Assembly (NCBI GenBank): GCA_002966495.1 | Contig: CP016490.1 | Span: 2,590,454-2,622,453, forward strand | DNA length: 32,000 bases | Source of the DNA: Halomonas sp. GFAJ-1 | GTDB taxonomy: Bacteria; Pseudomonadota; Gammaproteobacteria; Pseudomonadales; Halomonadaceae | Direction of reading: 5' to 3' | Shown here: positions 1,423 through 22,092 of the stretch, one piece after another | Numbering within the stretch: the stretch's first letter is position 1 | Layout of the letters: each line of letters opens with the position of its first letter | Translations under genes and position numbers: made by a program | The notes under the pieces: generated by a model | Database searches by the model: none | Told to the model about the DNA's origin: nothing | What the model saw: the letters and a program-made list of their open reading frames with translations, nothing else

Positions 1423-1494
1423 GCCAGTCATCAGCGGGAACGCTTTTATGTTTGTGCATTGTGCTTTTAACGTCGTTCAGGAGTGACCGCCCAC

Positions 1495-3567
1495 ATGGAT
1501 TTTGATTCAACTTCCGCCACGCAAGTGACTGACGCCCTCCAGGATGCCGATCTGGATACGCTGCTCAACACGCACTTTGCGGGCCGCGTGGTGCGTAAGG
1601 ATCTCACTCAACGCGTGAAAGAGGGCGCAAACGTGCCTGTTTACGTGCTGGAGTACCTGTTGGGTATGTACTGCGCCTCAGACGATGCGGAGGTGATCGC
1701 TACGGGATTGGAAAACGTTAAAGCGATTCTGACGGATAACTACGTTCGCCCGGATGAAGCGGAGAAAGTGAAATCCATCGTGCGCGAGCGCGGCAGCTTC
1801 AAGGTGATTGATCGTGTCACGGTGCGCCTGAACGAGAAAAAAGACCGCTATGAAGCGGCGTTCAGTAACTTAGGCATCAAAGATGCCGAGATCTCCGCAG
1901 GCATTGTTAAAGAGCACGAGAAACTGCTGGTAGGCGGTATTTGGGTGATTGCCACGCTCAGCTATTTTCATGAAGAGGGTCAGTCATCGTCACCGTTTGG
2001 CGTCAGCCTGCTCAAGCCAATTCAGATGCCCCACATGAATATGGACGAGCTGTTTGAAGGGCGGCGTGGCTTTACCAATACCCAGTGGCGAGAGGTGCTG
2101 ATTCGCTCGATTGGCATGGAGCCTGCCGAGCTAGATGAGAGCGTACAGTGGCACCTGCTGGCCCGGATGATTCCGTTTGTTGAGAACAACTACAACGTCT
2201 GCGAGCTAGGGCCACGGGGCACAGGCAAAAGTCATATCTATAAAGAGTGCTCACCCAACAGCATTTTGGTCTCTGGCGGGCAAACCACGGTGGCCAACCT
2301 GTTCTACAACATGAGCTCGCGTCGCATTGGCCTGGTAGGCATGTGGGATTTGGTGGCCTTCGATGAAGTGGCCGGTATCTCGTTCAAGGATAAGGATGGG
2401 GTGCAGATCATGAAGGATTACATGGCCTCTGGTTCTTTTGCCCGTGGGCGCGAACAGATGGAAGCCTCAGCCTCGATGGTGTTTGTGGGCAACATCAACC
2501 AAAGCGTGGAGTCGCTGGTAAAAACCAGCCACCTATTGACACCATTCCCCGATGCCATGATTGATGCCGCCTTCTTTGATCGCTTCCATGCCTATATTCC
2601 CGGCTGGGAAATCCCCAAGATGCGGCCCTCGTTTTTTACTCAGCGCTATGGGTTTATTGTTGATTACCTCGCTGAATTCTTCCGTGAGATGCGCAAACGC
2701 AACTTCGCCGATGCTATTGATCGCTACTTCTCGTTGGGTGACAACCTCAACCAACGTGACGTGATTGCGGTGCGTAAAACCGTGTCGGGCCTGCTGAAAC
2801 TGATGTTCCCCCATGGGGAATACATGAAAGACGATGTACGCGATTGCCTGGAATACGCCATGCAGGTACGCCGCCGCGTGAAGGAGCAGCTGAAAAAGAT
2901 TGGTGGCATGGAGTTTTACGATGTTCATTTCAGCTACATCGACAAAGAGACCTTGGAAGAGCACTTTGTGTCTGTGAAAGAGCAGGGCGGTGGCGGCCTG
3001 ATTCCAGAAGGCCAGGGCAAGCCAGGCGTGGTGCATACCATTGGCCTCAGCGATAAAGGCATGCCGGGGGTTTACCGCATCGAAATGCAGGTCACGGCGG
3101 GCAGCGGCAAGCTGGCCATGTCAGGGCTCTGGAACTCCACCGCCGCCAAAGAGCAGGTCAAAATGGCCTTTGATTACTTCAAGGCCAACGCCAGCCGCAT
3201 TAGCGGTGCCCGTAAGGTGCTAGAGCACGACTTTCACCTCCATGTGGTCGATCTGCAAAATAGCGGCGTTTTGCGTGACCTTTCGCTCGCCAGCTTGGTC
3301 GCGTTCTCTTCAGGCCTGGTAGGTAAACCTACTCAGAGCCAAATGGTCGTGCTGGGTGATATGAGCCTGGGAGGCAGCCTAAAGCCCGTCGCAAGCCTAG
3401 CGGAATGCCTGCAGGTTGCTTTTGATGCCGGTGGCAAGCGCGTCACCCTGCCCATGAGCAGCGCCATAGATATTCCCACCATCCCCGGAGAGCTGTTCAC
3501 CAAGTTCCAAACTAGCTTCTATGCCGAACCGATTGATGCAGTGGTCAAAGCGCTTGGGGTGGGTTAA
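1495..3567 (+). CDS. brxL: BREX Lon-like protease/ATPase BrxL
   Basis: Contains FAGRVVRKDLT..GANVPVYVLEYLLGMYC at the N-terminus, a P-loop GPRGTGKS, and a Lon-protease-like C-terminal domain. It is the last gene after pglZ. ATG 1495 is preferred over GTG 1483, because AGGAG at 1479-1483 overlaps the GTG. Confidence 0.85.
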   Translation: MDFDSTSATQVTDALQDADLDTLLNTHFAGRVVRKDLTQRVKEGANVPVYVLEYLLGMYCASDDAEVIATGLENVKAILTDNYVRPDEAEKVKSIVRERGSFKVIDRVTVRLNEKKDRYEAAFSNLGIKDAEISAGIVKEHEKLLVGGIWVIATLSYFHEEGQSSSPFGVSLLKPIQMPHMNMDELFEGRRGFTNTQWREVLIRSIGMEPAELDESVQWHLLARMIPFVENNYNVCELGPRGTGKSHIYKECSPNSILVSGGQTTVANLFYNMSSRRIGLVGMWDLVAFDEVAGISFKDKDGVQIMKDYMASGSFARGREQMEASASMVFVGNINQSVESLVKTSHLLTPFPDAMIDAAFFDRFHAYIPGWEIPKMRPSFFTQRYGFIVDYLAEFFREMRKRNFADAIDRYFSLGDNLNQRDVIAVRKTVSGLLKLMFPHGEYMKDDVRDCLEYAMQVRRRVKEQLKKIGGMEFYDVHFSYIDKETLEEHFVSVKEQGGGGLIPEGQGKPGVVHTIGLSDKGMPGVYRIEMQVTAGSGKLAMSGLWNSTAAKEQVKMAFDYFKANASRISGARKVLEHDFHLHVVDLQNSGVLRDLSLASLVAFSSGLVGKPTQSQMVVLGDMSLGGSLKPVASLAECLQVAFDAGGKRVTLPMSSAIDIPTIPGELFTKFQTSFYAEPIDAVVKALGVG

Positions 3568-3629
3568 GGTTAATGAGTCTATTGCGATGATGCATTCATG
3601 CTCTCGCACGCATTACAGGAGGCACTTAG

Positions 3630-3812
3630 ATGGAAAAATCTAATGAGCTCAGTGATGTAAAAGCAAACGGCGACCCTCTGCAGCGGCTTAAGGGCTCGGT
3701 TGGCAAATATGAGAAGCCATTTGAGCCTGTAGGCATTGAGGACTGGGAGGCTATGCAGATGGAAGAGCCTATTCCAGCCACCCGCACAGGTGATGAGCAT
3801 CCGCCGAGATAG
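3630..3812 (+). CDS. small hypothetical protein (60 aa); may not be coding
   Basis: Short ORF only. The acidic C-terminal stretch KPFEPVGIEDWEA is loosely reminiscent of antitoxin tails. No partner gene was seen. Confidence 0.25.
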   Translation: MEKSNELSDVKANGDPLQRLKGSVGKYEKPFEPVGIEDWEAMQMEEPIPATRTGDEHPPR

Positions 3813-3870
3813 ACACGCATTGCACATGCCATGTTAGTGAGCACATGGTCGGTAGGCGAGGAGCATAGCC

Positions 3871-4194
3871 ATGAAAGTGACTGAAAAAGTAGAAGTCGAA
3901 GCCGTCACCGATGTGGTGTGCGATGTATGCCTAACCACGACACGGGTAGCAGACGACAACCTTGAGTACGCCACCCTCAAAGCCCATTGGGGCTATGGCG
4001 CTCAACATGACGGCGAGCGTTATGAAGTTCACCTGTGCGAAAGCTGTTTTTTCAGCACGTTGGCTTACTTCAAACAAGAACGCCGTGTGCAAAATTTGTT
4101 CAGCGAAGATAGCGACAGAGAGCAGGCCTTCAATACAGATGACCGCCTGGGGCTAGTGGCGACGGATGACTATTTTGGTGATCATAAATCTTGA
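3871..4194 (+). CDS. hypothetical Cys-rich (CxxC...CxxC) small protein, possible zinc ribbon
   Basis: 107-aa ORF with GAGGAG 8 nt upstream of the ATG. Carries CDVC and CESC pairs. Confidence 0.5.
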   Translation: MKVTEKVEVEAVTDVVCDVCLTTTRVADDNLEYATLKAHWGYGAQHDGERYEVHLCESCFFSTLAYFKQERRVQNLFSEDSDREQAFNTDDRLGLVATDDYFGDHKS

Positions 4195-4476
4195 TAAGTG
4201 GTTTTGCTTCGCCTTTGGACTGAGTACAGAGGGCTGCTTAAGGCAGATTTCGACCCTGAGCGGACGTTCCCGAAACTATATATTTGCGGAGCCCTAAGCT
4301 CACAATGCGCGTTTTTCAGGTGCCGGCTGTAATATGAGTGCTCATATTTCTGGAGTATAATACTGTAAGTTTAGGTAAAAATGGTTTATGAAAAGGTGTT
4401 CTATGTTTATACGCAATTTTGAGAGAATGGTGATAATATTAACACGCATTCGCATGAATAAAATTGTTAGGCGCAC

Positions 4477-5028
4477 ATGAAATTTAGCGATCTTCTCGGC
4501 CAAGGGTACGACGAAAGAACCGAAATCATATATGCCAATCCAATTCGTGTTTATCTTCCGGAAACTCCGCTCAAGGTAATTGAGCAGGTCTACTGTCACC
4601 ACGGCAGAAAAGACGAGTTTCAGAGACAGTACGGAGAGCTTAATCTATCTGCCATAGCTTGGACCTCTATCACGTTGCCTGCCTCAGAAATAATTAAGGC
4701 TACTATCTACGAAGGTTTTATGCGTTGGTTCCGAAATGTTGAGTCCCGTACCTTGGAGTTTGCAGAGCGTGGCTGGCAGTGCATCGATAAGCGGAAAGAC
4801 GTAATTTCGCATTGGTCAAGGTATCAAACATGGTCGCGTCCACCTGTGTTCATCCAAGGGCTTACGCCGGGAGTTATCGGGGGACTGCACCTGATGGAAG
4901 GCCATACTAGAGTTGGCCTGCTAAGGGGCTTGGTAAAAGACGGAGTGCTTAGTCCGTTATCAAGGCATAAAGTCTTTGTTGGGCGTGTAGATGCGCCTAA
5001 CAAAAAATTGCATCAGACAAGCCGCTGA
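4477..5028 (+). CDS. hypothetical protein (183 aa)
   Basis: Clean ORF in a visibly AT-rich segment. No family recognised. Any ParB/Srx-like reading of LMEGHTRVG is speculative. Confidence 0.5.
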   Translation: MKFSDLLGQGYDERTEIIYANPIRVYLPETPLKVIEQVYCHHGRKDEFQRQYGELNLSAIAWTSITLPASEIIKATIYEGFMRWFRNVESRTLEFAERGWQCIDKRKDVISHWSRYQTWSRPPVFIQGLTPGVIGGLHLMEGHTRVGLLRGLVKDGVLSPLSRHKVFVGRVDAPNKKLHQTSR

Positions 5029-5057
5029 ATGCGGCGTTATACGTTTCTGGAGATACA

Positions 5058-5303
5058 ATGAGAGTTCTGGCTATCATTTCAAATGTTTTCTTGCTTATAG
5101 TGGTAGTACTACTCATCGTGGATAGTGGATGGCCATATGAATTAATTTATCAGTTAATGTTGCTTGTATTCTTTGCGGCCCCAATAATCAGTATTTTTGC
5201 TCTTGTTCAGTCAAATCTTGCTAAATCAGAAAGTTGGCTGGGCCTATTTATGCAACGGAAAAAGTTAGAAGAAAAAGAAAAGTTACGAAATTTACAAAAA
5301 TAG
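5058..5303 (+). CDS. small membrane protein (81 aa, two hydrophobic helices)
   Basis: Hydrophobic N-terminal 55 aa (VLAIISNVFLLIVVVLLIV, LMLLVFFAAPIISIFALV) followed by a Lys/Glu-rich tail. GGAG lies upstream of the ATG. Confidence 0.45.
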   Translation: MRVLAIISNVFLLIVVVLLIVDSGWPYELIYQLMLLVFFAAPIISIFALVQSNLAKSESWLGLFMQRKKLEEKEKLRNLQK

Positions 5304-5423
5304 ATAAATAAAACTGTATAACAATCGTAAGCAGTTCAGCCCTGCAGGCTCTGACGTCGCTTATCTCCGTTGCTGTTGTAAGCATTACCAGAGAGCAAAA
5401 CATCAATCAACGTCCCTCAAAGA

Positions 5424-6197
5424 CCGCTTCTGGCCGAGTAACGACGGCCCGAAATAGGCCGTCGTTCAGCCTCATCAAACTTCAGTCTGTTCTGCCATTT
5501 CTAACGCGTCATCTACCTCTATCCCTAGATACCTGACAGTGCTTTCCAGCTTCGTGTGACCCAGGAGCAGTTGCACTGCCCTTAGGTTTTTCGTGCGACG
5601 GTATATCAACGACGCTTTAGTGCGGCGCATCGTGTGCGTGCCATACACTGACGCATCTAAACCTATTTCGGTGACCCATGCTTTCACGATACGGGCATAT
5701 TGGCGTGTTGAAAGATGCTTTGCGCTATTGATGCGGCTGGGAAACAAGAAGTCTTCGTTTCTAAGTTGAGCAAGCTGTATCCAGTCCATGATAGCAATAC
5801 GCGTTTGCTCGGTTATTTCGAACTGGACAGGTCGATGCGTTTTTTGCTGCATCACGATGGCTCGTGGGGATATGCACGCACCATGGGCTATATCCCGGAC
5901 TCGTAAATTGACAAGGTCGCAGCCCCGTAATTTGCTATCAATGGCTAAATTGAAGAGGGCAAGGTCTCTCGTCTTTTTGGCAAGCTGTAGGCGCACACGT
6001 ATAGCCCAAATATCTCGAAGGCGCAGAGGCGACTTCTGACCAACTAACTTGCCTTTATTCCAAGGTGTAGGTGTACAGGAGATTTCAGTCACAACGTTCA
6101 TGGCATGTTCCTCCATCAGGTGGAGGTCAAAGAATGGCTCAATTCATGCTCGTCATGTGCTAAGGATAATTTACAATCGGTGCTCGACCCAAAGCGG
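5424..6197 (-). mobile_element. recombinase module copy 1 (~770 bp), bounded by imperfect inverted repeats
   Basis: Near-identical to 8195..8962. The ends are CCGCTTCTGGCCGA (5424-5437) and TCGACCCAAAGCGG (6184-6197). The reverse complement of the latter, CCGCTTTGGGTCGA, matches the former at 11/14 positions. Confidence 0.55.
5475..6101 (-). CDS. short tyrosine recombinase/integrase (catalytic domain only, ~208 aa)
   Basis: Catalytic pattern R (KLRGCDL), H-x-x-R (HTMRRT), H (LLGHTK) and Y (TVRYLG). GAGGA lies 8 nt upstream of ATG 6101; the ORF track starts at 6116 with no RBS. Confidence 0.8.
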   Translation of the reverse strand: MNVVTEISCTPTPWNKGKLVGQKSPLRLRDIWAIRVRLQLAKKTRDLALFNLAIDSKLRGCDLVNLRVRDIAHGACISPRAIVMQQKTHRPVQFEITEQTRIAIMDWIQLAQLRNEDFLFPSRINSAKHLSTRQYARIVKAWVTEIGLDASVYGTHTMRRTKASLIYRRTKNLRAVQLLLGHTKLESTVRYLGIEVDDALEMAEQTEV

Positions 6198-6364
6198 TTA
6201 TTCCAGGAAACGCAGCAGACGCGCGATTTTTGGAGATACAACCTAATGGAAATTGATGATTTTGAATATTATAGACTTTTACAGGCTGCATTTGCCGGAT
6301 AAACGTGCCGGAACGTTTTTTCAATCATAAGATGGGAAGTCTAATACACTGTTAGGCGTTTAAA

Positions 6365-7777
6365 ATGGATAGATGCGAGAAACGAATAGAGGCGGCGTTC
6401 CTTGTCCAGTGCTCGTCACAGGCTGCGTACGATTGGTTATTTTCCCGCAGGTACACTGGTGATCAGGGGCCGCCTAGGCTTTTCGAAGCCCCTGAGATTC
6501 TGGAGTACTTGTTGGTTCGCCGTAAGGATCCATTCATTGACTTGGCTATTGCACGCTTCGGCCACTCCCTACCAATGATTCGAAGGGTGTTCAGGCGAGG
6601 TAACGTGGGAACACGGTGTGCTGCTCTAGCGAATCTACATGTTGGGCCACGTACTCGTATGAATCGAATTAATGAGGGTTGGCTCCAGGAAGACGAGCTT
6701 AGGAAGCTTATTCGGAGTGGCTCAGAAGCAGAACTTGAAGCGTTGATTAAAAACAGATTTCTAAACGATGATGCGCTCGAATGTCTGCTTGAACGAAAAG
6801 AGGAATTTGCGGATATATCCGAAGAGCAATATATTAAGATGCTCATTTGGTTAGGGAAAAATCCTCGTATGTCGGCTGAATACGACCACAGGATTCTTGA
6901 CGGCTGGGCGGAGTCTAGTCATGCAAGAGTATTCTCGTTGGCTTGGGAGCTTGCGCGACATTTAGCTACAACAAAGACAAATGCCCGGGTGCTGTATGAA
7001 CTTCTGAAGAACACCGCGTTACCCGTTGGCTATGACAATCCTGAAGAAGTCTTGGAGCGATGGAGAATTGAGCAGGAACCCAAGAACGGACGCAGGTCAC
7101 TGGCATATTCATACTTCCTTAGAACGCGTCTTGCTGATGTTCTAAAGGCCGATGATAAACTTCTTTCCTCCAACGACCCATCGGAAAGAGAGTCGTTCTA
7201 CCGAAGATTCTACCCTTGGCAGTACAAGGACTGGCCCACGTTTATAGAGCGAGATGGCGGGCTTGCTTTCGATGCGATGGCTGAAAATAACGAATTGTGG
7301 CGTAACGCGGAGAGTCGGGAAGTATTACGCGATTTAGCTTGGAAAGTTCCCGATCCTCATTCATCTATGAGGGCTCCGAATACCTACAATGCTGTCGAAG
7401 AGCGTAAACTTAGGGAACATCCAGAATGGTTTGCAGATGAGGATTCGGAGTACAGCAATGCTCCGGATGCGATAGTCCGGCGTGTTGAGAAAAAAATGGA
7501 TAAGCTTGTAGATGCTGTCGAACCATTTTTGGGCAAGGATAATTATATCAATACCGTGGCGCAAGATATTGTAGAAAAAGTGGAGCGCTTGTCGAAACGC
7601 ATAGAGGATGCAGACACTGATAGTCAAAATGAAATTAGGCATGAACTCCATAGCTTGCGAGATGAACTGCATGAAACTAGAGCAATAACTCAACCGGCAC
7701 CATGTAGGTATACACGTGCGCCTGTTTGGCCATGGATCATTATCATTGGCCTTTTAATATTACTATTGCTGAAGTGA
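6365..7777 (+). CDS. hypothetical alpha-helical repeat protein with coiled-coil and C-terminal transmembrane anchor (470 aa)
   Basis: Long ORF. The C-terminus is VWPWIIIIGLLILLLLK. An acidic or coiled segment (VEKVERLSKRIEDADTDSQNEIRHELHSLRDELHE) precedes it. Confidence 0.6.
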   Translation: MDRCEKRIEAAFLVQCSSQAAYDWLFSRRYTGDQGPPRLFEAPEILEYLLVRRKDPFIDLAIARFGHSLPMIRRVFRRGNVGTRCAALANLHVGPRTRMNRINEGWLQEDELRKLIRSGSEAELEALIKNRFLNDDALECLLERKEEFADISEEQYIKMLIWLGKNPRMSAEYDHRILDGWAESSHARVFSLAWELARHLATTKTNARVLYELLKNTALPVGYDNPEEVLERWRIEQEPKNGRRSLAYSYFLRTRLADVLKADDKLLSSNDPSERESFYRRFYPWQYKDWPTFIERDGGLAFDAMAENNELWRNAESREVLRDLAWKVPDPHSSMRAPNTYNAVEERKLREHPEWFADEDSEYSNAPDAIVRRVEKKMDKLVDAVEPFLGKDNYINTVAQDIVEKVERLSKRIEDADTDSQNEIRHELHSLRDELHETRAITQPAPCRYTRAPVWPWIIIIGLLILLLLK

Positions 7778-8194
7778 AATATGCCTAACACCTATGAGCC
7801 TTCTCTCTGTCAATAGGCCGTAGGAGTTTTATTAGCCGCGCAAGCAGCCAATATCAAGCCCCTGAGCCAGTGATCCTACTTCATCTGTCATCATTGGCTG
7901 TAAGTGGCTTACAGCAAACACCTATTGAGGCACACTTATTGCGGTGGTTCACCAAAGGCTTCTGGCATGTAGGTCAATTCCACAGTAGTGGCGATGAGTG
8001 CTAGTGTAAAAGTTCATTGAGTCTTCTCCTGTTAGGTTTGGCCACCTTTTCAGCTTAACCAAACGGGCTGAGCTGGGGGAGAAGGATAAATGAGTATCAA
8101 TCCCATCAACAATGGCAGCAAAAAGCGCCGCTCCTTCGTTACCTGCTTTTTGCTTCTGGTTTTGGGCGGCGTTAAATCAGTGTTACCTAAAATA

Positions 8195-8962
8195 CCGCTT
8201 TTGGCCGGACAACGACGGCTAAGGATAGGCCGTCGTTTATCCATATCAAACCTCTGTCTGTTCTGCCATTTCCAACGCATCATCTACCTCTATCCCTAGA
8301 TATCTAACGGTGCTTTCCAGCTTCGTGTGACCCAAGAGCAGCTGCACTGCCCTTAAGTTTTTAGTGCGACGGTATATCAGCGACGCTTTGGTGCGGCGCA
8401 TCGTATGCGTGCCATAGATTGAAGCATCTAAACCTATTTCGGTGACCCAGGCTTTCACGATACGGGCATATTGGCGCGTGGACAGATGCTTTGCGCTATT
8501 GATTCGGCTGGGAAACAAGAAGTCCTCGCTCCTGAGCTGAGCAAGCTGTATCCAGTCGATAATAGCGATCCGAGTTTGCTCGGTAATTTCGAACTGGACA
8601 GGTCGATGCGTTTTTTGCTGCATCACGATGGCTCGTGGGGATATGCACGCACCATGAGCAATATCTCGTACACGTAAATTGACGAGGTCGCAGCCTCGTA
8701 ATTTGCTATCGATGGCTAGGTTGAAGAGGGCAAGGTCTCTCGTCTTTTTGGCCAGCTGCAGGCGCACACGTATAGCCCAGATATCACGAAGGCGCAGAGG
8801 CGCCTTCTGCCCAACCAACTTGCCTTTATTCCAAGGTGTAAATGAGATTTCAGTCGGAACGTTCATGGCATGATCCTCCATCAGGTGGAGGTCAAAGAAT
8901 GGCTCAATTAACGCTCGTCATGTGCTAAGGTTAATTTACAGTCAGGGTTCGACCCAAAGCGG
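8195..8962 (-). mobile_element. recombinase module copy 2 (~770 bp direct repeat of 5424..6197)
   Basis: Same end motifs as copy 1: CCGCTTTTGGCCGG (8195-8208) and TCGACCCAAAGCGG (8949-8962). The encoded protein differs from copy 1 at only a handful of residues plus a 2-aa indel. Confidence 0.55.
8246..8866 (-). CDS. short tyrosine recombinase/integrase, second copy (~206 aa)
   Basis: Same R/HxxR/H/Y motifs as 5475..6101. Uses the same internal ATG with GAGGA upstream (the ORF track starts at 8881). Confidence 0.8.
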   Translation of the reverse strand: MNVPTEISFTPWNKGKLVGQKAPLRLRDIWAIRVRLQLAKKTRDLALFNLAIDSKLRGCDLVNLRVRDIAHGACISPRAIVMQQKTHRPVQFEITEQTRIAIIDWIQLAQLRSEDFLFPSRINSAKHLSTRQYARIVKAWVTEIGLDASIYGTHTMRRTKASLIYRRTKNLRAVQLLLGHTKLESTVRYLGIEVDDALEMAEQTEV

Positions 8963-9149
8963 CCCTCTCGGCAACTGGTTCAGTTGTGTTATGCAGCCTA
9001 TTCATATCCATTTGCATTTAATTTCAATGGAATAGAACATAAATGATAGGCGGCATAACCTAAATGAACGCTCCCCCGTGTTCATTTAGGTTATGTAGAG
9101 GGTGTATAAACACCGATACGTGGGTACCTGATAATCTCAGAGGGTAATT
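8948..9149 (+). repeat. repeated leader unit A (attI-like): core TCGACCCAAAGCGG, GTTATGCAGCC box, 16-bp perfect hairpin, RBS
   Basis: Aligns by eye with 9900..10130. Shared blocks are tcgacccaaagcggccc, gtgttatgcagcc, aatttcaatgg, ataacctRaatgaac/gttcattYaggttatgtagaggg and ggtaattWtatg. The hairpin spans 9054-9069 / 9080-9095. Confidence 0.6.
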
Positions 9150-9530
9150 ATGGCAAAGGTAGGAATAGTTCTCGTCACGGCCCTTTTTATCGCAGGCTGC
9201 GCTTCGCAGATCATGGAATCTTACGTTGGAAAAGACATTCGTGAAGCTGCCCTAGATTACGGCCCACCTTCAAATGCCATCGATATGGGTGATAACGAAA
9301 GAGCTTTTCAGTGGGTAATGAATTCAAGTTTCACAACCCCCGTTACTACCACCACTACAGGGAGCGTAACATCGTATGGTCCGGGCTCTTGGATTAATAC
9401 AAACACCACAGTAACAGGCGGGGAGACAGTCAATTCATCCTGCATCTACACGCTAATGGCTCGCTGGAATGAGCGCTCAGAAAGCTGGATTGTAACTGGT
9501 TTCAGAAAGCCTCGGTTTACCTGCGAATGA
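9150..9530 (+). CDS. putative lipoprotein (126 aa)
   Basis: Signal peptide with lipobox LFIAGC. Thr-rich mature part. GAGGG RBS present. Confidence 0.6.
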   Translation: MAKVGIVLVTALFIAGCASQIMESYVGKDIREAALDYGPPSNAIDMGDNERAFQWVMNSSFTTPVTTTTTGSVTSYGPGSWINTNTTVTGGETVNSSCIYTLMARWNERSESWIVTGFRKPRFTCE

Positions 9531-9899
9531 CCACTTAACAAGGCAATCAAATTCGTTCTGGCCTTTGGCTTCTACCGAGTGCCTTTATCAGAGCGCAGCT
9601 TATTGTTGCCGTATGTGCTACTAGAAACCGCAAAAGCAAAGATGAAAGAAAGCCACGCACAGTGGCTAGGCGCGCTAGGAGGCAAAGCAAGGTGTAAAGA
9701 AGAAACACAAAAAAATCTGCCAAATAACATGCAGTCTCAATGGTGTGTAGCGACTTGTGCGCATTGCACGCACGACCTAGCTTCACGATGCATGAATAAA
9801 CAATTCGCCTAGATCTCACCCTTTCGTTGAAAGCAGTGACAAATTTCAATTTCTTAATATGCCGAATGAAAGCTACGTTGAGGTGAATAGGGAGCTGTA

Positions 9900-10130
9900 A
9901 TCGACCCAAAGCGGCCCTTCCGGCGAAAGCTGCATGCTGATTCAGCCGTGTTATGCAGCCGGCACGATAATCTATGTTATGCTGCCTATTTATAATTAAT
10001 TTATTTTAATTTCAATGGGGTAGATCGTGAATGATGGGCTGTATAACCTGAATGAACTCGGCGGTGCGTTCATTCAGGTTATGTAGAGGGATGTATAATA
10101 ACTGTTGCGTGTCGGTAACGAGGTAATTTT
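9900..10130 (+). repeat. repeated leader unit B (second copy of the attI-like unit, no recombinase gene next to it)
   Basis: Core TCGACCCAAAGCGG at 9901-9914. Two direct boxes: GTTATGCAGCC (9950-9960) and GTTATGCTGCC (9976-9986). Hairpin at 10043-10057 / 10068-10082. Confidence 0.6.
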
Positions 10131-10694
10131 ATGGCCCTTTTGGCCGAAGAAATTGTTGAGGAATGGCTGAATAGGCAGGGTTACTTCACTATCCGTGGAA
10201 TCCGTCTTGGCGTCAACGAGATTGATTTGGTCGCCGTAAAGTTCAGATCAGGGGAAAGCCCAGTTTGTCGCCATGTTGAGGTACAGGCGTCAATGAGACC
10301 GGTAAGCTACATCTCCAAGGTGCCCAAAGCTGCACGAAAAACAGGCCGAGCTGCGAATAGCGCAGCACGTTCACAGGAAGAACTTGTTGAAGGTGTTGCC
10401 GAATGGGTGGAGGGAAAGTTCCATGCCACCAAGAAGCGCTCACTTATGGCAACTCTGTGGAGCGGGGAGTGGTCGTCGGAGCTGGTTATAAATAACGTCA
10501 AATCTGAGCAGGAAGTAGCGCTTATCGCAGAGCATGGAGTAATTATACACCGGCTTCCTAAGATTGTTCGGGAGCTTCAAGTCAATGATTTCCCAATCAA
10601 AAGTGCTGCTGGAACAGATTTTATAGACCTCTTGCAAATGGGGGCCAACACAAAACAAGATGCTCTACCGTACGCTCCTTCGTCACGCCGGTAA
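10131..10694 (+). CDS. hypothetical protein with PD-(D/E)xK-like (YraN/endonuclease-like) N-terminal region
   Basis: The pattern EEIVEEWLNRQGY...NEIDLVAV...RHVEVQAS resembles the E..GY..EIDL..VEVK signature, with Q in place of K. The stop lies inside the attC-like site. Confidence 0.55.
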   Translation: MALLAEEIVEEWLNRQGYFTIRGIRLGVNEIDLVAVKFRSGESPVCRHVEVQASMRPVSYISKVPKAARKTGRAANSAARSQEELVEGVAEWVEGKFHATKKRSLMATLWSGEWSSELVINNVKSEQEVALIAEHGVIIHRLPKIVRELQVNDFPIKSAAGTDFIDLLQMGANTKQDALPYAPSSRR

Positions 10695-10708
10695 GCTCTG
10701 CGTTATAA
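10650..10708 (+). repeat. attC-like recombination site (59 nt)
   Basis: Imperfect palindrome ACAAAAC-AA-GA[T]GCT[C]TACCG ... CGGTA-AGC-TC-TGC-GTTATAA. Paired AAC/GTT ends, with unpaired T and C on one arm. Confidence 0.6.
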
Positions 10709-10724
10709 GTCATTGAGGTTCTGA

Positions 10725-11393
10725 GTGAGTAATGAAATTCGGGCGATAATTCAGAAGGCTGAAGAAACGCTCCAAACTGCTAGGTTTGGCTACGAGGATC
10801 TCACGTCGAGAAATCGCTACCGGAGGTATTCGGGCATCCGAAACTTGGTCGTTTTTGGCCGTTCAGTGACTTTCGTAATTCAGAACCTTAAAACGCCTGT
10901 TGGTTCTGATCGGTTTGATGCTTGGTATCAACCGATACAGGAAAAAATGAAGTCTGATGTTCTGATGAAGTATTTCGTCACGCTGAGAAACGAAATACTC
11001 AAACAGGGAAAACTGCCGGTCAGCACATCTGCCTCAGTCAACTTCTCATCTTCTGACATGGTAAAGTTGGGAACACCTCCCCCAGGAGCCAGTGGATTTT
11101 TCATTGGAGATCAAACTGGCGGTAGTGGGTGGGAAATCGAATTGCCGGATGGGACAAAGGAAAAGTATTACGATGAACTCCCCGAAAGCATGGCTAAGGT
11201 TCAGCAGCACTTCAGCGAATTGCCGGTTCCAGATGATGACGATTTGAAGAAAAAGTCTATCGAGGAGCTTTGCGAATACTATCTTAAAGAACTTGAAGGG
11301 GTCCTAGACGAGGCTCGGAAAGTCTTCTTGGGTGAGGATACTCAAAGGGCCGGAGGGAAGAGGCTTCCTCCTTATTTGAGAGTAGTGAAATGA
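10725..11393 (+). CDS. hypothetical protein (222 aa), cassette-borne
   Basis: GTG start with GAGG 6 nt upstream. Flanked by the inverted pair GTTATAAGTCA (10702-10712) and TGACTTATAAC (11391-11401). Confidence 0.55.
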   Translation: MSNEIRAIIQKAEETLQTARFGYEDLTSRNRYRRYSGIRNLVVFGRSVTFVIQNLKTPVGSDRFDAWYQPIQEKMKSDVLMKYFVTLRNEILKQGKLPVSTSASVNFSSSDMVKLGTPPPGASGFFIGDQTGGSGWEIELPDGTKEKYYDELPESMAKVQQHFSELPVPDDDDLKKKSIEELCEYYLKELEGVLDEARKVFLGEDTQRAGGKRLPPYLRVVK

Positions 11394-11394
11394 C

Positions 11395-11478
11395 TTATAA
11401 CCAGTGCAGGCACGGCGACGCCCACTACATTGCGCCTTCGGCTCCATTCCGTGGGCGCGCATGCTGCAAGCGTTAGCC
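11395..11478 (+). repeat. attC-like recombination site (84 nt)
   Basis: TTATAAC...TGCAG...GCG[A]CGCCCAC - loop - GTGGGCGCGC...CTGCA...GTTAGCC. Arms pair with one extrahelical A. Ends with a GTTRRRY-like box. Confidence 0.7.
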
Positions 11479-11491
11479 TTTATGGAGAGTT

Positions 11492-12460
11492 ATGAGTAAG
11501 CCTTTAATTTACCTAGATCAAAATATCATCGGCTTGCAGTTGCAGGGCATTATCAACCTGAGTAAGCGAGATGATGTAACTTGGGTTTACTCAAAAGAGC
11601 ACTTTGCAGAGATTCTACGCTCTAATAAATCTGAGAAATATTTAGGTGTTCTCGATGCTATAGATGCAAAATTATTAGACCTTGTTCTTGACGATAACTG
11701 GAAAATTACTGGTGAAGCTAGGTTAATTGAGAACGGAACCCCATATGAACATTATGATAGCTACATTGAAGCAACCGGTGATGTAGATTTCGATGACTCC
11801 ATTTTCGACCCATTCCAGGTATGGGTTAACGGTGGTGGAGACGAAGGTCCATTAAAGGACCTCTCTGAAAAATTCGCACAGCAAATCTTAAGGCTCACTT
11901 CTGACTTGCCTTTTGATACTACAGAAATGACTGACCAAGTTAAGCAGATAAAGCCCGAATTTGATTCCATGATCGATGAGATGATATCAAATGGAAATGA
12001 TATCCATAAGACTAGGGCGGCTTTCGGAGATCAGAAAGGCTCCATCGGTAGTATATCAGGCGAGAAACAGATTGAGAAAATTTGGGAAATAATATCCCCA
12101 ACGATGCACGGGGCAGATATTAGTTGTGATCAATTTTTTGGCTTTGATCCCATCGATAAACAAGGTTGCGGCATTTGGCCAATTTATCTCGGAATAATTG
12201 GATGCAATTCGGTGCTTGATATATTAGGTTTTCAAGCAGAGAAAAAATGCAGAAAACTAAACAAAATTCATAACGTAAGAAGTGATGCTGGTCATATAGC
12301 GATGGGCGCATATTGCTCAGCAATCATGTCTGAGGATAAGCGTTTAGTTAAAAGAGCAAAAGCCATCTATGAATATAAGGAAATAGGAACTTCTCCTATT
12401 CTGGTCATACGAGAGGCTAACAAACCAATCCAGCCGACCGCTGACGCGTCGGCTGATTGA
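11492..12460 (+). CDS. hypothetical protein (322 aa), cassette-borne
   Basis: Clean ORF with GGAGAG upstream. The N-terminal IYLDQNII is loosely PIN-like (speculative). The stop lies inside the next attC-like site. Confidence 0.55.
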   Translation: MSKPLIYLDQNIIGLQLQGIINLSKRDDVTWVYSKEHFAEILRSNKSEKYLGVLDAIDAKLLDLVLDDNWKITGEARLIENGTPYEHYDSYIEATGDVDFDDSIFDPFQVWVNGGGDEGPLKDLSEKFAQQILRLTSDLPFDTTEMTDQVKQIKPEFDSMIDEMISNGNDIHKTRAAFGDQKGSIGSISGEKQIEKIWEIISPTMHGADISCDQFFGFDPIDKQGCGIWPIYLGIIGCNSVLDILGFQAEKKCRKLNKIHNVRSDAGHIAMGAYCSAIMSEDKRLVKRAKAIYEYKEIGTSPILVIREANKPIQPTADASAD

Positions 12461-12470
12461 AGCGTTCGTC
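12415..12470 (+). repeat. attC-like recombination site (56 nt)
   Basis: GGCTAAC-AAAC-CAATC[C]AGCCGAC - CGCTGACGC - GTCGGCT-GATTG-AAGC-GTTCGTC. Near-perfect arms with one extrahelical C. Confidence 0.7.
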
Positions 12471-12482
12471 AGCTTTGAGAGC

Positions 12483-13274
12483 GTGGTGTCAACGATGAGT
12501 GAAATTCCTGGATTTAGGGACGTGGGGCCACATGAGCCATTGTCCGTCGAGGCCACTTGGGACGAGTTCGTATCGATCTCAGGCGGGAAACGAATCTCGG
12601 ATGATCTCCCGAAATCTCCCGATTTTGATAACGCCGATTATCTGTTCGAGCAAGATGCTGTAGTACTTGAGTTGAAGGAAATCGAGACCGAGTTCCTACG
12701 TTCTAAATCTGCCAAGCGCGGGTTCGAGGATCTCTTAACGCGGCTTACTGCAGAAGATCCTTCATGGCGGCCGCTTTTGTTAGGAGGTGATGGACAATAT
12801 CCAGCGTGGTTTCATCAAGGGTTCGTTCGCCTTGCAAGGCCCGCCATTCTACGGGTACTCAAAAAGGCCAATAGGCAAATTCGGGAAACGAAAGAGAAGT
12901 TTCGGATCAACAGTCCCAACGGAGTGCTCATATTCGTCAATGATGGGTTCACTGGTTTGGCGCCAGGCCTCGTTCACGCTCTCGCCTGTGACGCATTGGT
13001 GCACTCCTATTCCTCAATTGATTGTTTCCTTTATGTCACCGTCAATCGCTATGTTGAGGTCACGCAGTCGAATGAGCCAAAGATAATTTGGAATCCGTCC
13101 TACAGTGATCGGGCGCCTAATGAACTCGTAACCTTTATCGACACCCTTGGGCGGCGCTGGTTCGATTTCTTAGAGAACAAAATCGGGCCGTACACGTCCC
13201 GCTATGAAGGCGGCGATCGGTCGATACTTCATGGCTCCAAGGCTATCGTCATCCCGGGTGAGGAAGACAGGTGA
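12483..13274 (+). CDS. hypothetical protein (263 aa), possible PD-(D/E)xK nuclease fold
   Basis: ORF with an alternative ATG at 12495. The stretch NADYLFEQDAVVLELKE fits D-x10-E-x-K; this reading is speculative. Confidence 0.5.
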   Translation: MVSTMSEIPGFRDVGPHEPLSVEATWDEFVSISGGKRISDDLPKSPDFDNADYLFEQDAVVLELKEIETEFLRSKSAKRGFEDLLTRLTAEDPSWRPLLLGGDGQYPAWFHQGFVRLARPAILRVLKKANRQIRETKEKFRINSPNGVLIFVNDGFTGLAPGLVHALACDALVHSYSSIDCFLYVTVNRYVEVTQSNEPKIIWNPSYSDRAPNELVTFIDTLGRRWFDFLENKIGPYTSRYEGGDRSILHGSKAIVIPGEEDR

Positions 13275-13294
13275 GCGGTCCTGCGCCGCCGAAC

Positions 13295-13365
13295 AACAAA
13301 CTGTACCTGACGTCTCCGCCTCCGCTGTGCTATGGCGGAGCCGCAGGTGAGCTTGAGCGTTAAAT
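13295..13365 (+). repeat. attC-like recombination site (71 nt)
   Basis: AACAAAC..ACCTG-ACGT-CTCCGCC - loop - GGCGGAG-CCGC-AGGT..GCGTTAAAT. The terminal GTTAAAT fits GTTRRRY exactly. Confidence 0.7.
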
Positions 13366-13403
13366 TCTATAAACCCACAGATCAGAAAGAGTTGGATATC
13401 CGT

Positions 13404-14429
13404 ATGAGCAAGGAGATACTGGAGGAGCAGCGAAGATTTTTCGAGTTTGTTAAGAGCTATGAACATATCAATGAAGAGGGCCGTCTTGACTTAGAAGCTT
13501 TCTGTGTAAACCTCTCAACGTGTTTCAATTGCGATGGGGTTCTCGATCAATCGCCTCAGCCCAGAGAAATCTTTGATTTGCTCATTGACATACTGGAAAC
13601 CAAAGCTACCGGGAAGGAGATGTCCTTATGGTTGCAGAGGCAAAACCTGATCGATTGGTCCCCCGAAGTTGCTCAGGTATATCCGGATGGCTATAGAACC
13701 TATATTCATGTAGCTGGCTTAATTCACGCAGCATACACGTGGATATATCACATTGGGCACTCCTTGATGGGGATCTCTGAGCCCGAATCGCCAAAAAAAT
13801 ATTTTGAATGGATCCCACGTGAATGGGTTTTCGTTCATGCGTTTATAAATGGATTTCACATCAAGTTTTCTGAGTTTCAAAAAGAAATCGATAGGAGCTC
13901 AGTCGGTGAAAGAGGGTATTCATTATTCGAGTCACTACACAAGTCGATATCTAACGACCTTTCCTTTGAAGAAGCGTCTCAGGAGATAAAGGAAAGAGAC
14001 GTAGCGCATCGCGAAACGATAAAAAGAATCGAGATAGCTATTGATTCAGGCTTTAATCTTGAGGCGATTACCTTGCAAGAGTGCTTGATTAGTAATTGCC
14101 TTTTCAATTACTTGGAAAGTCTTGGTATTAAGGCTAAAGGTTTTTCATTTCAAAAGCTCTTAAAAAAGAGTAAGGACTGCTTCAACGATAGTTCGGACCT
14201 GTTTAATGAGGTTGATTCTTGGAGAATTAAAAGGAATAACGCAATACATGGGTTCGTTGAGTCAACCTTAGGGTCATTTTCTGAATCTCAAGAAAAATTT
14301 GACCTCTTTGCCAGAGGGACCGCCTTGGAAGGTGATGCTCTCTCCAAAAGAGTTTGTGAGTGGTATCTTGAAGAGTCTGTAAACTTCATACCAGCCGAGT
14401 TTCCTAAAAGTGGAAGAAATCTCAATTAA
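13404..14429 (+). CDS. hypothetical protein with C-terminal HEPN-like R-x4-H motif (putative RNase)
   Basis: RNNAIH at 14232-14249 (WRIKRNNAIHGF). The ORF-track start at 13332 lies inside the attC-like site, so ATG 13404 (MSKEILEE) is preferred. Confidence 0.55.
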   Translation: MSKEILEEQRRFFEFVKSYEHINEEGRLDLEAFCVNLSTCFNCDGVLDQSPQPREIFDLLIDILETKATGKEMSLWLQRQNLIDWSPEVAQVYPDGYRTYIHVAGLIHAAYTWIYHIGHSLMGISEPESPKKYFEWIPREWVFVHAFINGFHIKFSEFQKEIDRSSVGERGYSLFESLHKSISNDLSFEEASQEIKERDVAHRETIKRIEIAIDSGFNLEAITLQECLISNCLFNYLESLGIKAKGFSFQKLLKKSKDCFNDSSDLFNEVDSWRIKRNNAIHGFVESTLGSFSESQEKFDLFARGTALEGDALSKRVCEWYLEESVNFIPAEFPKSGRNLN

Positions 14430-14435
14430 GGTGAT

Positions 14436-14494
14436 ATTTAACAAGTTACGGAAGGCGGACGCGTAAGATGTGCCCCTTCGTTTTGGCGTTATAT
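14436..14494 (+). repeat. attC-like recombination site (59 nt), last of the array
   Basis: ATTTAAC (exact RYYYAAC) -AAGTT-ACG-GAAGG-CGGAC ... GTGCCCCTTC-GT-TTTGGC-GTTATAT. Imperfect palindrome. Confidence 0.6.
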
Positions 14495-14767
14495 CAGGCA
14501 AAGCTGAAAGGCCGCTCCTGGCCGATAGTTGACGTTGAAAAGCTGTTTGTTGGTGCCAAAATCTAAAATTTGCTTGTTTTGAAAGAAGTAAGCACGTGTA
14601 GCGACCTATGAGCAGGTTAGAGAGAGTTTCGGCACACAGTTTGTATATTTCCTAGTAGTGTTCAAAAGCTGTAGGAACGAACAAGGAACGCTAGCGAGCT
14701 AAGCGGTAGATCAGAGAAATGTTTTCGCTGAGATGTGTAGTGAATTGTCCATGAGTAACGTCCATCA

Positions 14768-15289
14768 ATGAGAGCGCCGTTATCGCTACCCCAGCTATGG
14801 GAAAGCACCAAATACGTATCTTGGCCACAAAGCCACAGTAACCCCATTGTGCGTGTGCCGCGCCCATCGGGGAAACCCGAAACCAAGTCGATTTCCCGCT
14901 TAGCCAATGAGTACGACACCTTTGAGCGGTGCATTGCTTATCGAGACCAGCGGGGCAGAGAGGTTTGGGGCGCACGTCGTTGGAAAGAGCTGTTGTTAGT
15001 AGATGCACGCTCCGTCGCGCGTCATCGTGAAGAGCCGGCAGGCCCGATCACGGGCGTTTACCACTACGAACGCCCCACTGGAACAACACTCTGGGTTGCC
15101 GCCTGGTATGAGCTGATGCCCGACGGCTCACGCAAAAAACGCAGTGCGCAGTTCAGTTACGGTACGTCACGCACTCGCTATGCGACCTCAGAAGAGGCGA
15201 TGCAGGCGGCGATTAAACGGCGGCAAGAGGAAGAAGCACGCTGGTACTGTGTAGTGGGTCAACGTGATCAACGGCGCGTGAATCAATGA
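14768..15289 (+). CDS. AP2-like DNA-binding domain protein
   Basis: [14 protein letters not shown] followed by [29 protein letters not shown]...[12 protein letters not shown] resembles bacterial AP2/integrase-type DNA-binding proteins. The true start may be GTG 14849 or 14855. Confidence 0.55.
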
Positions 15290-15317
15290 TGTAAAATCCC
15301 ATCTTCAAGGAGTTCCA

Positions 15318-16541
15318 ATGGCTTTTCGCTTCCAGCGCCGCATTTCCCTTGCGCCCGGCGTGCGATTGAATATCAGCAAGCGTGGCGTGGGGCTCTCTGT
15401 CGGCCCACGCGGTGCGAGTGTGAGCATGGGGCCACGAGGTGCGCATGCACATGCCGGACTTCCTGGGACAGGGCTGGCCTATCGAACGAAGATTTCCCGT
15501 TCTTCCCAGGCCTCACGACAAAGGCAGTTGGGAACATCCTCGACCCATGCAACGCTGGAAGAGCGCATCAGGCAAGGCGAGTCGCTGGGGCTACGGCTAT
15601 CGGTTAATCAAGACGGCAACGTCCGCTACCTATTTGAAGATGGCTCCCCCCTCAACGACAAGGACGTGCGCTGGCTACGTCGCCATGCAAACGACGATAT
15701 CCGTGCACAGCTCAAAACACTCTGCGATGAATTAAACGCGGATATTATTCGCCTAGGCCGGCTGCACCTCGATACACTTTCCCCTCAATCCCGTGGCTAC
15801 GCACCACGCCATTTTGCTGAGCGTCCACCTAAACCGCCTAAGTCTGTGTCTCTTCCATGGTGGAAAGCGCTGTGGCCATCGGTACGCCGTCAACATGAGG
15901 CCGATAACGCACGTCATCAGGCCCAGTTTAATGATGACTACCGTGCCTGGGAGCATCGCAAAGCCGATTTTGAGGCTGCTGAGTTTGCTCGGCAGCAGCG
16001 CGAAGAGCAGGGCGTGTTCAGACAACGTGATGATATGACACTCACGCTTCAGGAACGCCTGGAGGAGATCGACTGGCCCCGGGAGACGGTGATTGACTTT
16101 GATCTAGGCAGCGACGACACCACGATAGCACTGGATATTGACCTGCCATCTGACGATGAGATGCCGGATCGAGAATGGACGATGCCTGCTAAGGCACTCA
16201 AGCTTACCCCAAAATCGCTCAGTGCCACACGACAACGGACGCTATACCGCGACCATGTGGATGGCATTACCTTTCGTGTTCTGGGGGCCGTATTTGTGCG
16301 GTTGCCGCACGTTCAAGAAGCGCGAGTGTCTGGGTATCGACAGGTCGTTGATCCCGCCACCGGCGGTACGCGGGATCAGTACCTTTACAGCATCAAGGTC
16401 ACCCGAGAACAGTGGAACCGTATTCACTTCGATCAGTTGGAACAGGTCGACCCGGTGGCGGCAGTAGAAGCGTTTACGCTGCGTCGTGACATGACCAAAA
16501 CAGGCATTTTTCGAGATATTGAGCCGTTTAAGCTCATCTAA
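15318..16541 (+). CDS. DUF4236-like protein (407 aa)
   Basis: The N-terminus [41 protein letters not shown] is the DUF4236 signature. GGAG lies upstream of the ATG. Confidence 0.65.
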
Positions 16542-16762
16542 TTTCTAGCTTAGGCATAAGCCCAAGGCTTTTGTGTTGTTTGACCAGGTGTGCTCATTCG
16601 ATGGTAGTGACAACGGTTAGGCGTGAGCGGCGCTGACATTACAGCCTTTGATCATTGAGAAGGCGCGATGAGCTTTATAGGCCAATATTTTTTAGAAAAA
16701 TTTATGCTTTATGGTGGATAGCTGCTATACGTTTGATAAGGATATCTTAGCAGGTGGTTGCC

Positions 16763-18001: not shown

Positions 18002-18005
18002 CGTC

Positions 18006-20066: not shown

Positions 20067-20076
20067 GCAGGTCGGC

Positions 20077-21126: not shown

Positions 21127-21731
21127 GATACTTTTTTTGCATAAAATATCTAATGCCTTCAGGCAATCACGCATTTTTAGCAGGGAGGTGTATTGCTTGC
21201 TTACATGGGTTTATAAGCGGCCCTAAAATAACGAATTCCGGCATTGGTGTTTCGTTTCCATCATGGGCTACGGGCACAGTTGGTGATTCAATCGCTTTCG
21301 TGAGTAAAGATATTAATGCTTTGTCTTATTTATCATCAGCGCGCTGTTTTAAGAATATGGCGGACGAAGGGTTTATTGACGTTAGTGATATTAAAATGGT
21401 TCCAGAGAAATTAGAAGAAGTTAGGTTTATTAGAAATCAGCATATTGCTAAATCTTTTCCGGGAGAAATTAAGAGACGGCTCATCCGCAGCAAAAACCGG
21501 GCTGAAAAACGTGGCGAGACGTTCATGCCTAGCAGTGCCGTATCAGATCGCTTCGTTGATCAATGCCACGTAATTCCAATTGATAGCCGATCGTCAGGCC
21601 AGCGCTTCCCACTGTATGTGCAGCTTGAAGCACTTGGCGAAGAAAGCAAGTATAATAACTACAATAGTTACGGGCTTGCTACACAGTATACATACTCGGG
21701 TTCGGTGCCAAACCTTAAGCAGATTACCTAA
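21123..21731 (+). CDS. cas6: Cas6f-like crRNA endoribonuclease
   Basis: ATGA overlap with the cas7 stop. Blocks GIGVSFPSW, basic RRLIRSKNRAEKRGE and C-terminal SYGL. The leader and array follow. Confidence 0.75.
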   Translation: MRYFFCIKYLMPSGNHAFLAGRCIACLHGFISGPKITNSGIGVSFPSWATGTVGDSIAFVSKDINALSYLSSARCFKNMADEGFIDVSDIKMVPEKLEEVRFIRNQHIAKSFPGEIKRRLIRSKNRAEKRGETFMPSSAVSDRFVDQCHVIPIDSRSSGQRFPLYVQLEALGEESKYNNYNSYGLATQYTYSGSVPNLKQIT

Positions 21732-21854
21732 ATATTTTCAGAATATATATTATTATACTTATCAATTACTTGCCTGAATTACGCTAAAAAGTGTGTTTTT
21801 ATCATTTTGTACTTATCTCGTTGATGTCTATATTTAAACTGCTAGCTAGGTCTA

Positions 21855-22002: not shown

Positions 22003-22060
22003 AGGACTGGAAGCCAGCAACGGTAATGATACACACCGCCGCAAGGCAGCAATGGTTCTA

Positions 22061-22092
22061 AACCCTCCAAGATTTCTTGGAGGGTTTTTTTT
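22061..22092 (+). terminator. rho-independent terminator after the array
   Basis: AACCCTCCAAG-attt-CTTGGAGGGTT followed by T8. Confidence 0.7.

Follow-up and report, generated by a model that had tools for sequence, protein, structure and literature searches.

Background

Integrons, the pdif modules of Acinetobacter plasmids, the FimB/FimE invertases and recombinase-mediated cassette exchange (RMCE) with heterospecific sites are the closest described counterparts of a gene array found at positions 4250-14525 of a 32,000-nucleotide stretch of the Halomonas sp. GFAJ-1 genome (contig CP016490.1, positions 2,590,454 to 2,622,453; the window). The array holds seven copies of a short site in two forms, b and a, and two genes, int1 and int2, for a small tyrosine recombinase. 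The host XerC/XerD act on pdif sites of 28 bp (XerC-6-XerD), and RMCE (engineered Cre/lox and Flp/FRT) is a laboratory design, not a natural family.

As in integrons, a leftward recombinase gene stands next to the site at the head of a run of co-oriented, promoterless-looking genes, and blocks end in a recombination site. Leaders of attI-like type and attC cassettes make up the cargo, and the same genome encodes an integron integrase, IntI. An attI-like site heads the array (leaders 1 and 2, with CTGTTAGGC-type cores), and the cassettes are attC-ended and singly mobile, as judged by the distribution of the arrays and by one moved cassette at 98% identity. Unlike in integrons, the adjoining recombinase is not IntI: against the TIGR02249 cut-off of 265 bits it reaches 24.3, only 36 aa align with the IntI of the genome, and that real IntI is 0.9 Mb off rather than next to attI. 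Crossover here would fall at 14-bp double-strand motifs, a and b, not at attI/attC cores, whole arrays or multi-gene blocks appear to be moved, and the recombinase gene stands between two sites and recurs within arrays.

The pdif modules resemble the array in being bounded by short, alternating inverted sites in varied contexts, with breaks at the sites. This arrangement is seen in the window and in arrays L046, L047, L099 and L124 (L-numbers denote compared loci and G-numbers compared genomes; the G300 locus is L072 and the G271 locus L073). A recombinase gene of its own lies between the sites of the present array, and the sites themselves differ as well. In a catalogue of ~60 a and b sites, compared with dif by inspection and with no dif model, the conserved asymmetric 14-mer YCGRCCMRRAGCKG has no dif-like arms, and 28-bp sites with XerC/XerD arms around a 6-bp spacer were not seen. 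FimB and FimE are likewise recombinases of ~200 aa with little beyond the catalytic domain, and act on short inverted repeats. The present recombinase does not belong to their families (26.2 and 18.1 bits on PRK09871 and PRK09870, cut-offs 222 and 221), and its repeats flank the recombinase gene and cargo modules rather than a small promoter element, with exchange between loci indicated. In RMCE two non-identical sites flank a cassette, each site recombines with its like, and integration at one site with later excision at the other swaps the cassette; the comparison of the window with G300 and G271 looks like such a swap, and the rule that like sites recombine with like is, in our case, one that we infer from sequence. 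We propose, with a probability of roughly 0.6, that the array was built and remodelled by two-site recombination run by the 206-aa tyrosine recombinase, with like sites recombining.

Results

Two site types

The b site, TCGACCCWRAGCGG, occurs in four exact copies at 4250, 6184, 8949 and 9901, all on the + strand (chance expectation at ≤2 mismatches, 0.62). The 3.65-Mb genome (G000, a single contig, C1) has no further exact copy, and the four fall within 5.7 kb; one copy with one mismatch lies elsewhere. Across 100 genomes of the genus the exact copies number 0-5 per genome, with AA and TG variants predominating. The a site, CCGCTYYTGGCCGR, is exact at 5424, 8195 and 14512. The search for a gave nine matches in total where 1.3 were expected, and none of 100 shuffles gave as many. 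The three AA-type b sites match a on the opposite strand with two mismatches, so that a is an imperfect inverted form of b, and the order of sites in the window is b a b a b b a. Two-mismatch matches at 10134 and 12708 lie inside open reading frames (ORFs) and look like chance.

A sequence-only reading of the window had listed these four motifs and three inverted relatives as recombinase-linked sites. All seven positions proved exact, and the search of the genome placed the motif at this locus. Because its exact copies are limited to the locus, the motif does not resemble a dispersed repetitive extragenic palindrome, and that candidate was rejected; a tRNA- or dif-derived att site was rejected as well, no likeness being seen on inspection.

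The full sites exceed 14 bp: a has a GCGTTAYATCAG box ~20 nt inward, and after b comes a 160-220-nt leader. Each site is made of two parts. The outer half (TGGCCGR of a, YCGACCC of b) belongs to the recombinase unit or the resident flank, and the inner half (..CCGCTYY of a, WRAGCGG.. of b) travels with the cargo.

A recombinase unit bounded by a and b

In an alignment of 18 units, the recombinase unit measures 0.78 kb and comprises a, a hairpin with a 10-bp stem two bases further on, the int stop codon and gene, a hairpin that holds the ribosome-binding site, ~60 nt and b. In the window the shared blocks are 5415-6197 and 8186-8962 (88% identity between 5415-5714 and 8186-8485); each runs from a to b around its int gene, which bears out the earlier description of recombinase genes bracketed by an inverted a/b pair. 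When positions 1-23000 of the window were compared by BLAST with 21 loci that hold an int relative, this unit was the sole shared DNA, beginning at 5413-5426 and ending at 6146-6216, or extending to 6355 where leader 1 was shared as well.

Flank homology ends at the motifs both within the window and against these 21 loci, as the sequence-only reading had it. The left flanks of the b sites at 6184 and 8949 are indeed homologous (6069-6197 and 8834-8962, 91%), as are the right flanks of those at 8949 and 9901 (8987-9102 and 9975-10090, 78%, the leader). The accompanying statement that the other flanks are unrelated does not hold throughout, the right flanks of all four b sites being distant relatives and all attI-like (alignment A1).

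The recombinase matches only the catalytic domain of the Phage_integrase family, PF00589 (Pfam E 9e-20 to 2e-19), and has no N-terminal domain. Residues R62, K90, H159, R162, H185 and Y194 are invariant in alignment A2 and make up the R-K-HxxR-H/W-Y set of tyrosine recombinases. By NCBIfam scores it is not IntI, XerC or XerD; the nearest solved structure is XerD (E 1.6e-5), and a structure prediction from an 8-sequence alignment was unusable (mean pLDDT 48.8). A GGAGG ribosome-binding site precedes the second ATG of int and is paired in the hairpin at 6105-6125. The int1 and int2 products share 97% aa identity in the genome search and 95.8% by tblastn. Because the synonymous divergence of the two genes (dS) is 0.41 but the nonsynonymous divergence (dN) is 0.018 (dN/dS 0.04), the comparison indicates that they arrived separately and are both under purifying selection.

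The hairpin beside a carries compensatory changes at five pairs across 15 modules, and this covarying element may help a recombinase that lacks a core-binding domain to recognise asymmetric 14-mers. Just inside b, at 6150-6177, lies an outward promoter-like element, a candidate promoter directed out of the unit; the promoter and terminator scan was otherwise uninformative. Mini linkers without int, consisting of a, 27-32 nt and b, were observed at L101 (4304-4358), L124 (~8170-8230) and L074 (after 14892). Their spacer (AACAAGAATGCTCGTGCAT...) resembles the b-proximal part of the recombinase unit, of which they look like non-autonomous derivatives.

Exchanged states at orthologous loci

Genomes of the family were searched with the two outer flanks of the window, BREX on one side and tniQ-cas on the other. 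Both flanks lie close together in genomes of two other species of the genus, G300 and G271, and a third genome, G274, has the right junction only. In G300, positions 1-4265 of the window are matched at 95% and positions 14483-21938 at 96%, with 2.26 kb between them; in G271 the matches are 1-4263 and 14481-22090, with 3.04 kb between them (flank identities over both genomes, 92-96%). Between the outermost b and a, these two genomes hold different genes and no int; the G300 insert consists of three small ORFs.

Breaks in identity coincide with the sites on both sides. On the left, identity stops right after TCGACCCTGAGCGG, 0-2 nt past b site 1 in comparisons with G300, G271, G320 and G284. On the right it resumes inside a at TGGCCGATAGTTGACG in G300, G271 and G274, the junctions (slash at the break) being CCGCTCC/TGGCCGA in the window, CCGATTT/TGGCCGA in G300 and CAGCTTT/TGGCCGA in G271, with G274 the same as G271. 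On the same left flank G332 has AA in place of TG, and among 39 distinct b sites the central dinucleotide tracks the outer context, not the leader type. As the breaks lie within the sites and the dinucleotide follows the outer context, we place the crossover within the 14-mer and regard the sites as composite. The flank swapping that had been proposed from the window, of the kind expected at site-specific recombination junctions, is thus seen between species, the orthologous loci in G300 and G271 breaking inside the sites.

The G271 insert encodes a 597-aa AAA_21/AAA_15 ATPase and a 284-aa protein (L073 9023-10816 and 8011-8865), a pair that looks like a two-gene defence system.

Arrays elsewhere follow the same grammar. 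With gene numbers in parentheses, they read b(2)a(2)a(4)a-int-b(1)a in L046, b(3)a-int-b(1)b(3)a in L047 and b(5)b(3)a in L099, and L124 has Thoeris genes followed at some distance by a-int-b-DUF4238-a-mini-b. The b-cargo-a-int-b order read from the window is thus shared by other genera, with one correction in the window itself: the supposed lipoprotein block is b plus an attI duplicate. Two genera with only 72-75% identity in their int units share the b site and leader 2 at 94%. Searches of 9531-9900 and 14526-15300 by tblastn and sensitive blastn found no int remnants beside the solitary sites.

Distribution of the recombinase and its layout

The recombinase has more than 8000 database matches, and the best 120, at ≥80% identity bar one at 57%, come from Pseudomonas, Halomonas, Azotobacter and Stutzerimonas. 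An int gene was found in 17 of 151 Halomonadaceae genomes and in 14 of 400 evenly sampled gammaproteobacterial genomes, spread over 13 families. It is patchy and often decayed, pseudogenes and fragments being common, a pattern expected of a mobile unit. Relatives are also present on 420 plasmids of alpha-, beta- and gammaproteobacteria. All these records carry generic names only, and a full-text literature search returned no description of the recombinase family or its sites, which is not proof that they are undescribed.

The a-hairpin-int-b layout was seen in six Halomonadaceae genera, P. aeruginosa and Stutzerimonas. The P. aeruginosa sites, CAGCTTCTGGCCGG and CCGGCCAAAAGCTG, are complementary at 13 of 14 positions. 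Of twelve more distant gammaproteobacterial loci that were inspected, two (L128, L132) clearly show all of it, and in three more a b-like site is all that can be recognised. Relatives at 72-81% aa identity lie on pMOL30 of C. metallidurans CH34 (L146, 198530-199156) and on the P. aeruginosa megaplasmid pPUV-1 (L147), which are well-studied metal-resistance and multidrug plasmids. A 6.8-kb virome contig with a recombinase relative has no terminal overlap and hence gives no evidence of a circle.

Genomic setting and cargo

The array region lies in the cargo part of a type I-F3 CRISPR-associated transposon (CAST), in a genome whose closest relatives by protein are named Vreelandella/Halomonas, and the G+C content falls from ~0.55 to 0.45-0.47 across positions 4000-15000 of the window. 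Its features are listed in Table 1.

Table 1. Features of the array and its flanks, in window coordinates
Feature	Position	Strand	Remarks
PglZ and BrxL	28-3567		End of BREX system
107-aa CxxC...CxxC protein	3871-4194	+	ORF; last conserved gene ahead of array, after brxL
b site 1, TCGACCCTGAGCGG	4250-4263	+	TG type; resident site; left edge of variable region
Degenerate attI-like leader	4264-4476	+	Ends GTTAGGC (4465-4471); weak alignment with other leaders and true attI region (A1)
Cargo 1	4477-5303	+	183-aa protein (phrog_8867, function unknown) and 81-aa membrane protein
a site 1, CCGCTTCTGGCCGA	5424-5437	+	Left edge of block common to all other int modules
Conserved hairpin, AACGACGGCC N7 GGCCGTCGTT	5440-5466		Between a and int stop codon; 10-bp stem
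int1	5475-6116	-	Catalytic-domain-only tyrosine recombinase; likely start 6101, giving 206 aa
b site 2, TCGACCCAAAGCGG	6184-6197	+	Right edge of int module 1
Leader 1, attI-like	6198-6355	+	Ends CTGTTAGGC; homologous to region upstream of true intI (A1)
Cargo 2	6365-7777	+	470-aa protein, C-terminal membrane anchor
a site 2, CCGCTTTTGGCCGG	8195-8208	+	Hairpin after it at 8211-8237
int2	8246-8881	-	Likely start 8866
b site 3, TCGACCCAAAGCGG	8949-8962	+	
Leader 2 copy A (attI-like) and 126-aa lipoprotein	8963-9530	+	Signal peptide and IAGC lipobox, read from sequence
b site 4, TCGACCCAAAGCGG	9901-9914	+	Solitary; no int adjoining
Leader 2 copy B, attI-like	9915-10130	+	
Integron-type cassette array	10131-14501	+	ORFs of 187, 222, 322, 263 and 365 aa
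attC-like elements of cassette array	11398-11475, 12418-12466, 13275-13368, ~14430-14501		
a site 3, CCGCTCCTGGCCGA	14512-14525	+	Right edge of variable region
TniQ, Csy2-like protein and further cas genes	16754-21731		

All cargo genes of the window point away from b. Their function was sought with Pfam, NCBIfam and PADLOC, which returned nothing above threshold, and with PHROGs, which returned only families of unknown function; the 470-aa protein of cargo 2 had no relatives in a search of genome contigs. The only Rfam match, in leader 2, was to a miRNA and a chance one.

Homologues of the 107-aa protein stand directly upstream of b sites in G134 and G306, and a Pfam search with this protein gave no match. 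The same genome has another copy (G000:C1:375873-376543), placed after the 3' end of a brxL-like gene. The protein may be a BREX accessory gene product or a preferred neighbour of arrays; we treat it as array context. An a-like site, GCGGCCAAGAGCTG, found at two mismatches and with a TATAACG box, is present at 23136-23149, beyond the cas genes and outside the array, and is kept in G300 (L072 17236).

Leaders and integron-type cassettes

The true integron integrase of the genome (395 bits) is encoded 0.9 Mb from the array, at G000:C1:1702498-1703430 (L119 8496-9449). The region upstream of it has a LexA box, GGATATGTAGCC-type boxes, a long palindrome also found in the leaders and the end CACTGTTAGGC. 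Because this region aligns with leaders 1 and 2, we take the leaders to be attI-like and, on sequence features, the five-gene block to be a real integron cassette array. The true intI platform has no b site. Two small ORFs follow true intI, and then a stretch that was likely disrupted by an insertion sequence (IS).

Leader 1 is kept after b in L039 (two copies), L046, L072, L076 and L124. Among 100 genus genomes, ~27 have leader 2 at 82-93% identity and at or near its full length, mostly right after b, with partial copies in more, and copy B is 94% identical to that of L047 in another genus. A palindrome with 16-17-bp arms and GTTATG ends was observed in every leader 2 (9054-9095 and 10043-10082) and in the true attI region (L119 ~9585-9635). 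That of copy A has 16-bp arms and a fold z of -5.7, pairing is kept through changed bases, and the palindrome may be a binding element for IntI or a regulator.

The attC calls were made with no attC model of the IntegronFinder style. Bottom-strand folds of two elements gave z scores of -3.8 and -3.5, and the other two (-1.0 and +0.4) were like shuffles. The ~80-nt attC type of 11398-11475 occurs in ~55 of 100 genus genomes at up to 99% identity, often arrayed at 0.35-1.4 kb spacing. It was also observed at G000:C1:2499820-2499897, and such arrays often have no integrase nearby, as beside menE in G327 (L098) and panE in the own genome (L102). One cassette, 12462-13362, is 98% identical to a single cassette in a different array of G300, beside panE, with exact attC-type boundaries.

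Discussion

Taken at its most probable, the array has two tiers, with IntI and attC acting on cassettes and the small recombinase acting on arrays at a and b. We assign a and b to the small recombinase, as the putative enzyme, because they flank int in Pseudomonas with no integron features nearby. Under the proposed model b would recombine with b and a with a, inserting, removing or swapping units of int and cargo. A putative circle of int-b-cargo-a, or a copy on another replicon, would enter a resident b...a module via either site. Entry through one site would give the tandem b-cargo-a-int-b-cargo-a that is observed. A later event at the other site type would remove int and the old cargo. The net result would be cassette exchange that leaves one int-less b-cargo-a module, as in G300 and G271. 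Since a differs from b at two to three positions of the outer half, inversion by a x b recombination would be limited. IntI, 0.9 Mb away, could shuffle single cassettes, while the small recombinase would move whole arrays. The model accounts for the tandem order, the int-less sister modules and the runs of b...b and a...a.

Several points weigh against it. Exchange at a and b is read from sequence comparison, with no product, circle or alternative order among the sequences, and the like-with-like rule is drawn from array grammar only. The recombinase lacks the core-binding domain that would read DNA, and two binding arms arranged as a dyad about a spacer are not obvious in the 14-mers. Many b...a modules stand in genomes with no intact int (G147, G084, the G300 locus), so action in trans or past action must be assumed. 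Nearly every b site in Halomonadaceae has an attI-like leader behind it, and an attC-like GTTATAT box precedes about half of the catalogued a sites; IntI may therefore have a role at these sites. In P. aeruginosa, unlike in the window, the b-side cargo points toward int.

Three other explanations were considered, each weaker than the like-with-like model. The 0.78-kb a-int-b unit could be an IS-sized element with terminal inverted repeats that inserts into cassette arrays, in which case solitary sites would be relic ends and the cargo differences would stem from other processes. This would fit a unit that is the only DNA common to the arrays, its near-identical copies in unrelated contexts that include plasmids and regions like integrative and conjugative elements (ICEs), the int-less remnants of a, 27-32 nt and b, and the common int pseudogenes and fragments. 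At the orthologous CAST loci, however, b marks the left edge of the variable DNA and a the right edge, opposite to the ends of the unit, and no int remnant lies beside either, so that two flanking units, each cut to exactly one half-site, would be needed. Blocks are also split by a only (L046) or b only (8949/9901, L099 and L047), unlike the paired ends of an element, and we consider a history of relic elements unlikely.

A switch of the FimB/FimE type, in which the recombinase flips its own gene and outward promoter, or a cargo block, and so toggles cargo expression, is suggested by a size and domain layout like those of tyrosine invertases of ~200 aa (PRK09871, E 4.9e-6 over 23-172 of 198), by the inverted a/b repeats with their 13/14 complementarity in P. 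aeruginosa, by the promoter-like element inside b and by the opposite orientation of b-side cargo in P. aeruginosa. We find such a switch very unlikely, since the orientation of int relative to the cargo is constant in ~10 orientation-mapped Halomonadaceae arrays (~30 loci were inspected for sites), the swapped-half sites expected after inversion are not seen in those arrays, the different cargo at orthologous loci is left unexplained and the NCBIfam score is far under the cut-off (26 against 222 bits). The least probable explanation is ordinary integron dynamics, with IntI acting in trans on attI and attC and with a and b as conserved signals for expressing the leader and the small recombinase gene rather than crossover sites. 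A bona fide IntI (395 bits), attI-like leaders, a cassette moved with exact attC-type boundaries and an attC-like box that often precedes a sites speak for it. Identity between three orthologous loci nonetheless breaks inside the a/b 14-mers and not at the GTTRRRY cores of attI and attC, located 20-200 nt farther inward; no b site accompanies the true intI platform; and in P. aeruginosa and Stutzerimonas int has a and b on its two sides with no integron features nearby. Like-with-like recombination at a and b remains the reading that we prefer.

Conclusions

Beyond this locus, we put at even odds the broader reading that we are dealing with a natural, widespread and so far undescribed platform for array-level exchange, in which a recombinase-only unit and two heterotypic sites swap gene blocks like with like, as a second tier above the integron. 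On this same reading the blocks would be integron arrays here and defence systems (Thoeris, GmrSD-HEPN) elsewhere, exchanged among chromosomes, plasmids, ICE-like elements and CRISPR-guided transposons. To this the window contributes exchanged states seen at an orthologous site, evidence that the sites are composite, and a link with integron arrays. With two intact enzymes, seven sites and sister genomes in exchanged states, it is a good test locus, and for cassette exchange a 206-aa recombinase paired with two heterotypic sites of 14 bp would be a compact and attractive tool. If the reading is true, it offers a mechanism for the block-by-block differences of defence islands and transposon cargo regions between close relatives, and shows how integron cassette arrays with no integrase arise and relocate. 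With ~80% aa identity between Halomonas and Pseudomonas recombinases, and with relatives in P. aeruginosa lineages, megaplasmids and metal-resistance plasmids, the system may shape accessory genomes widely.

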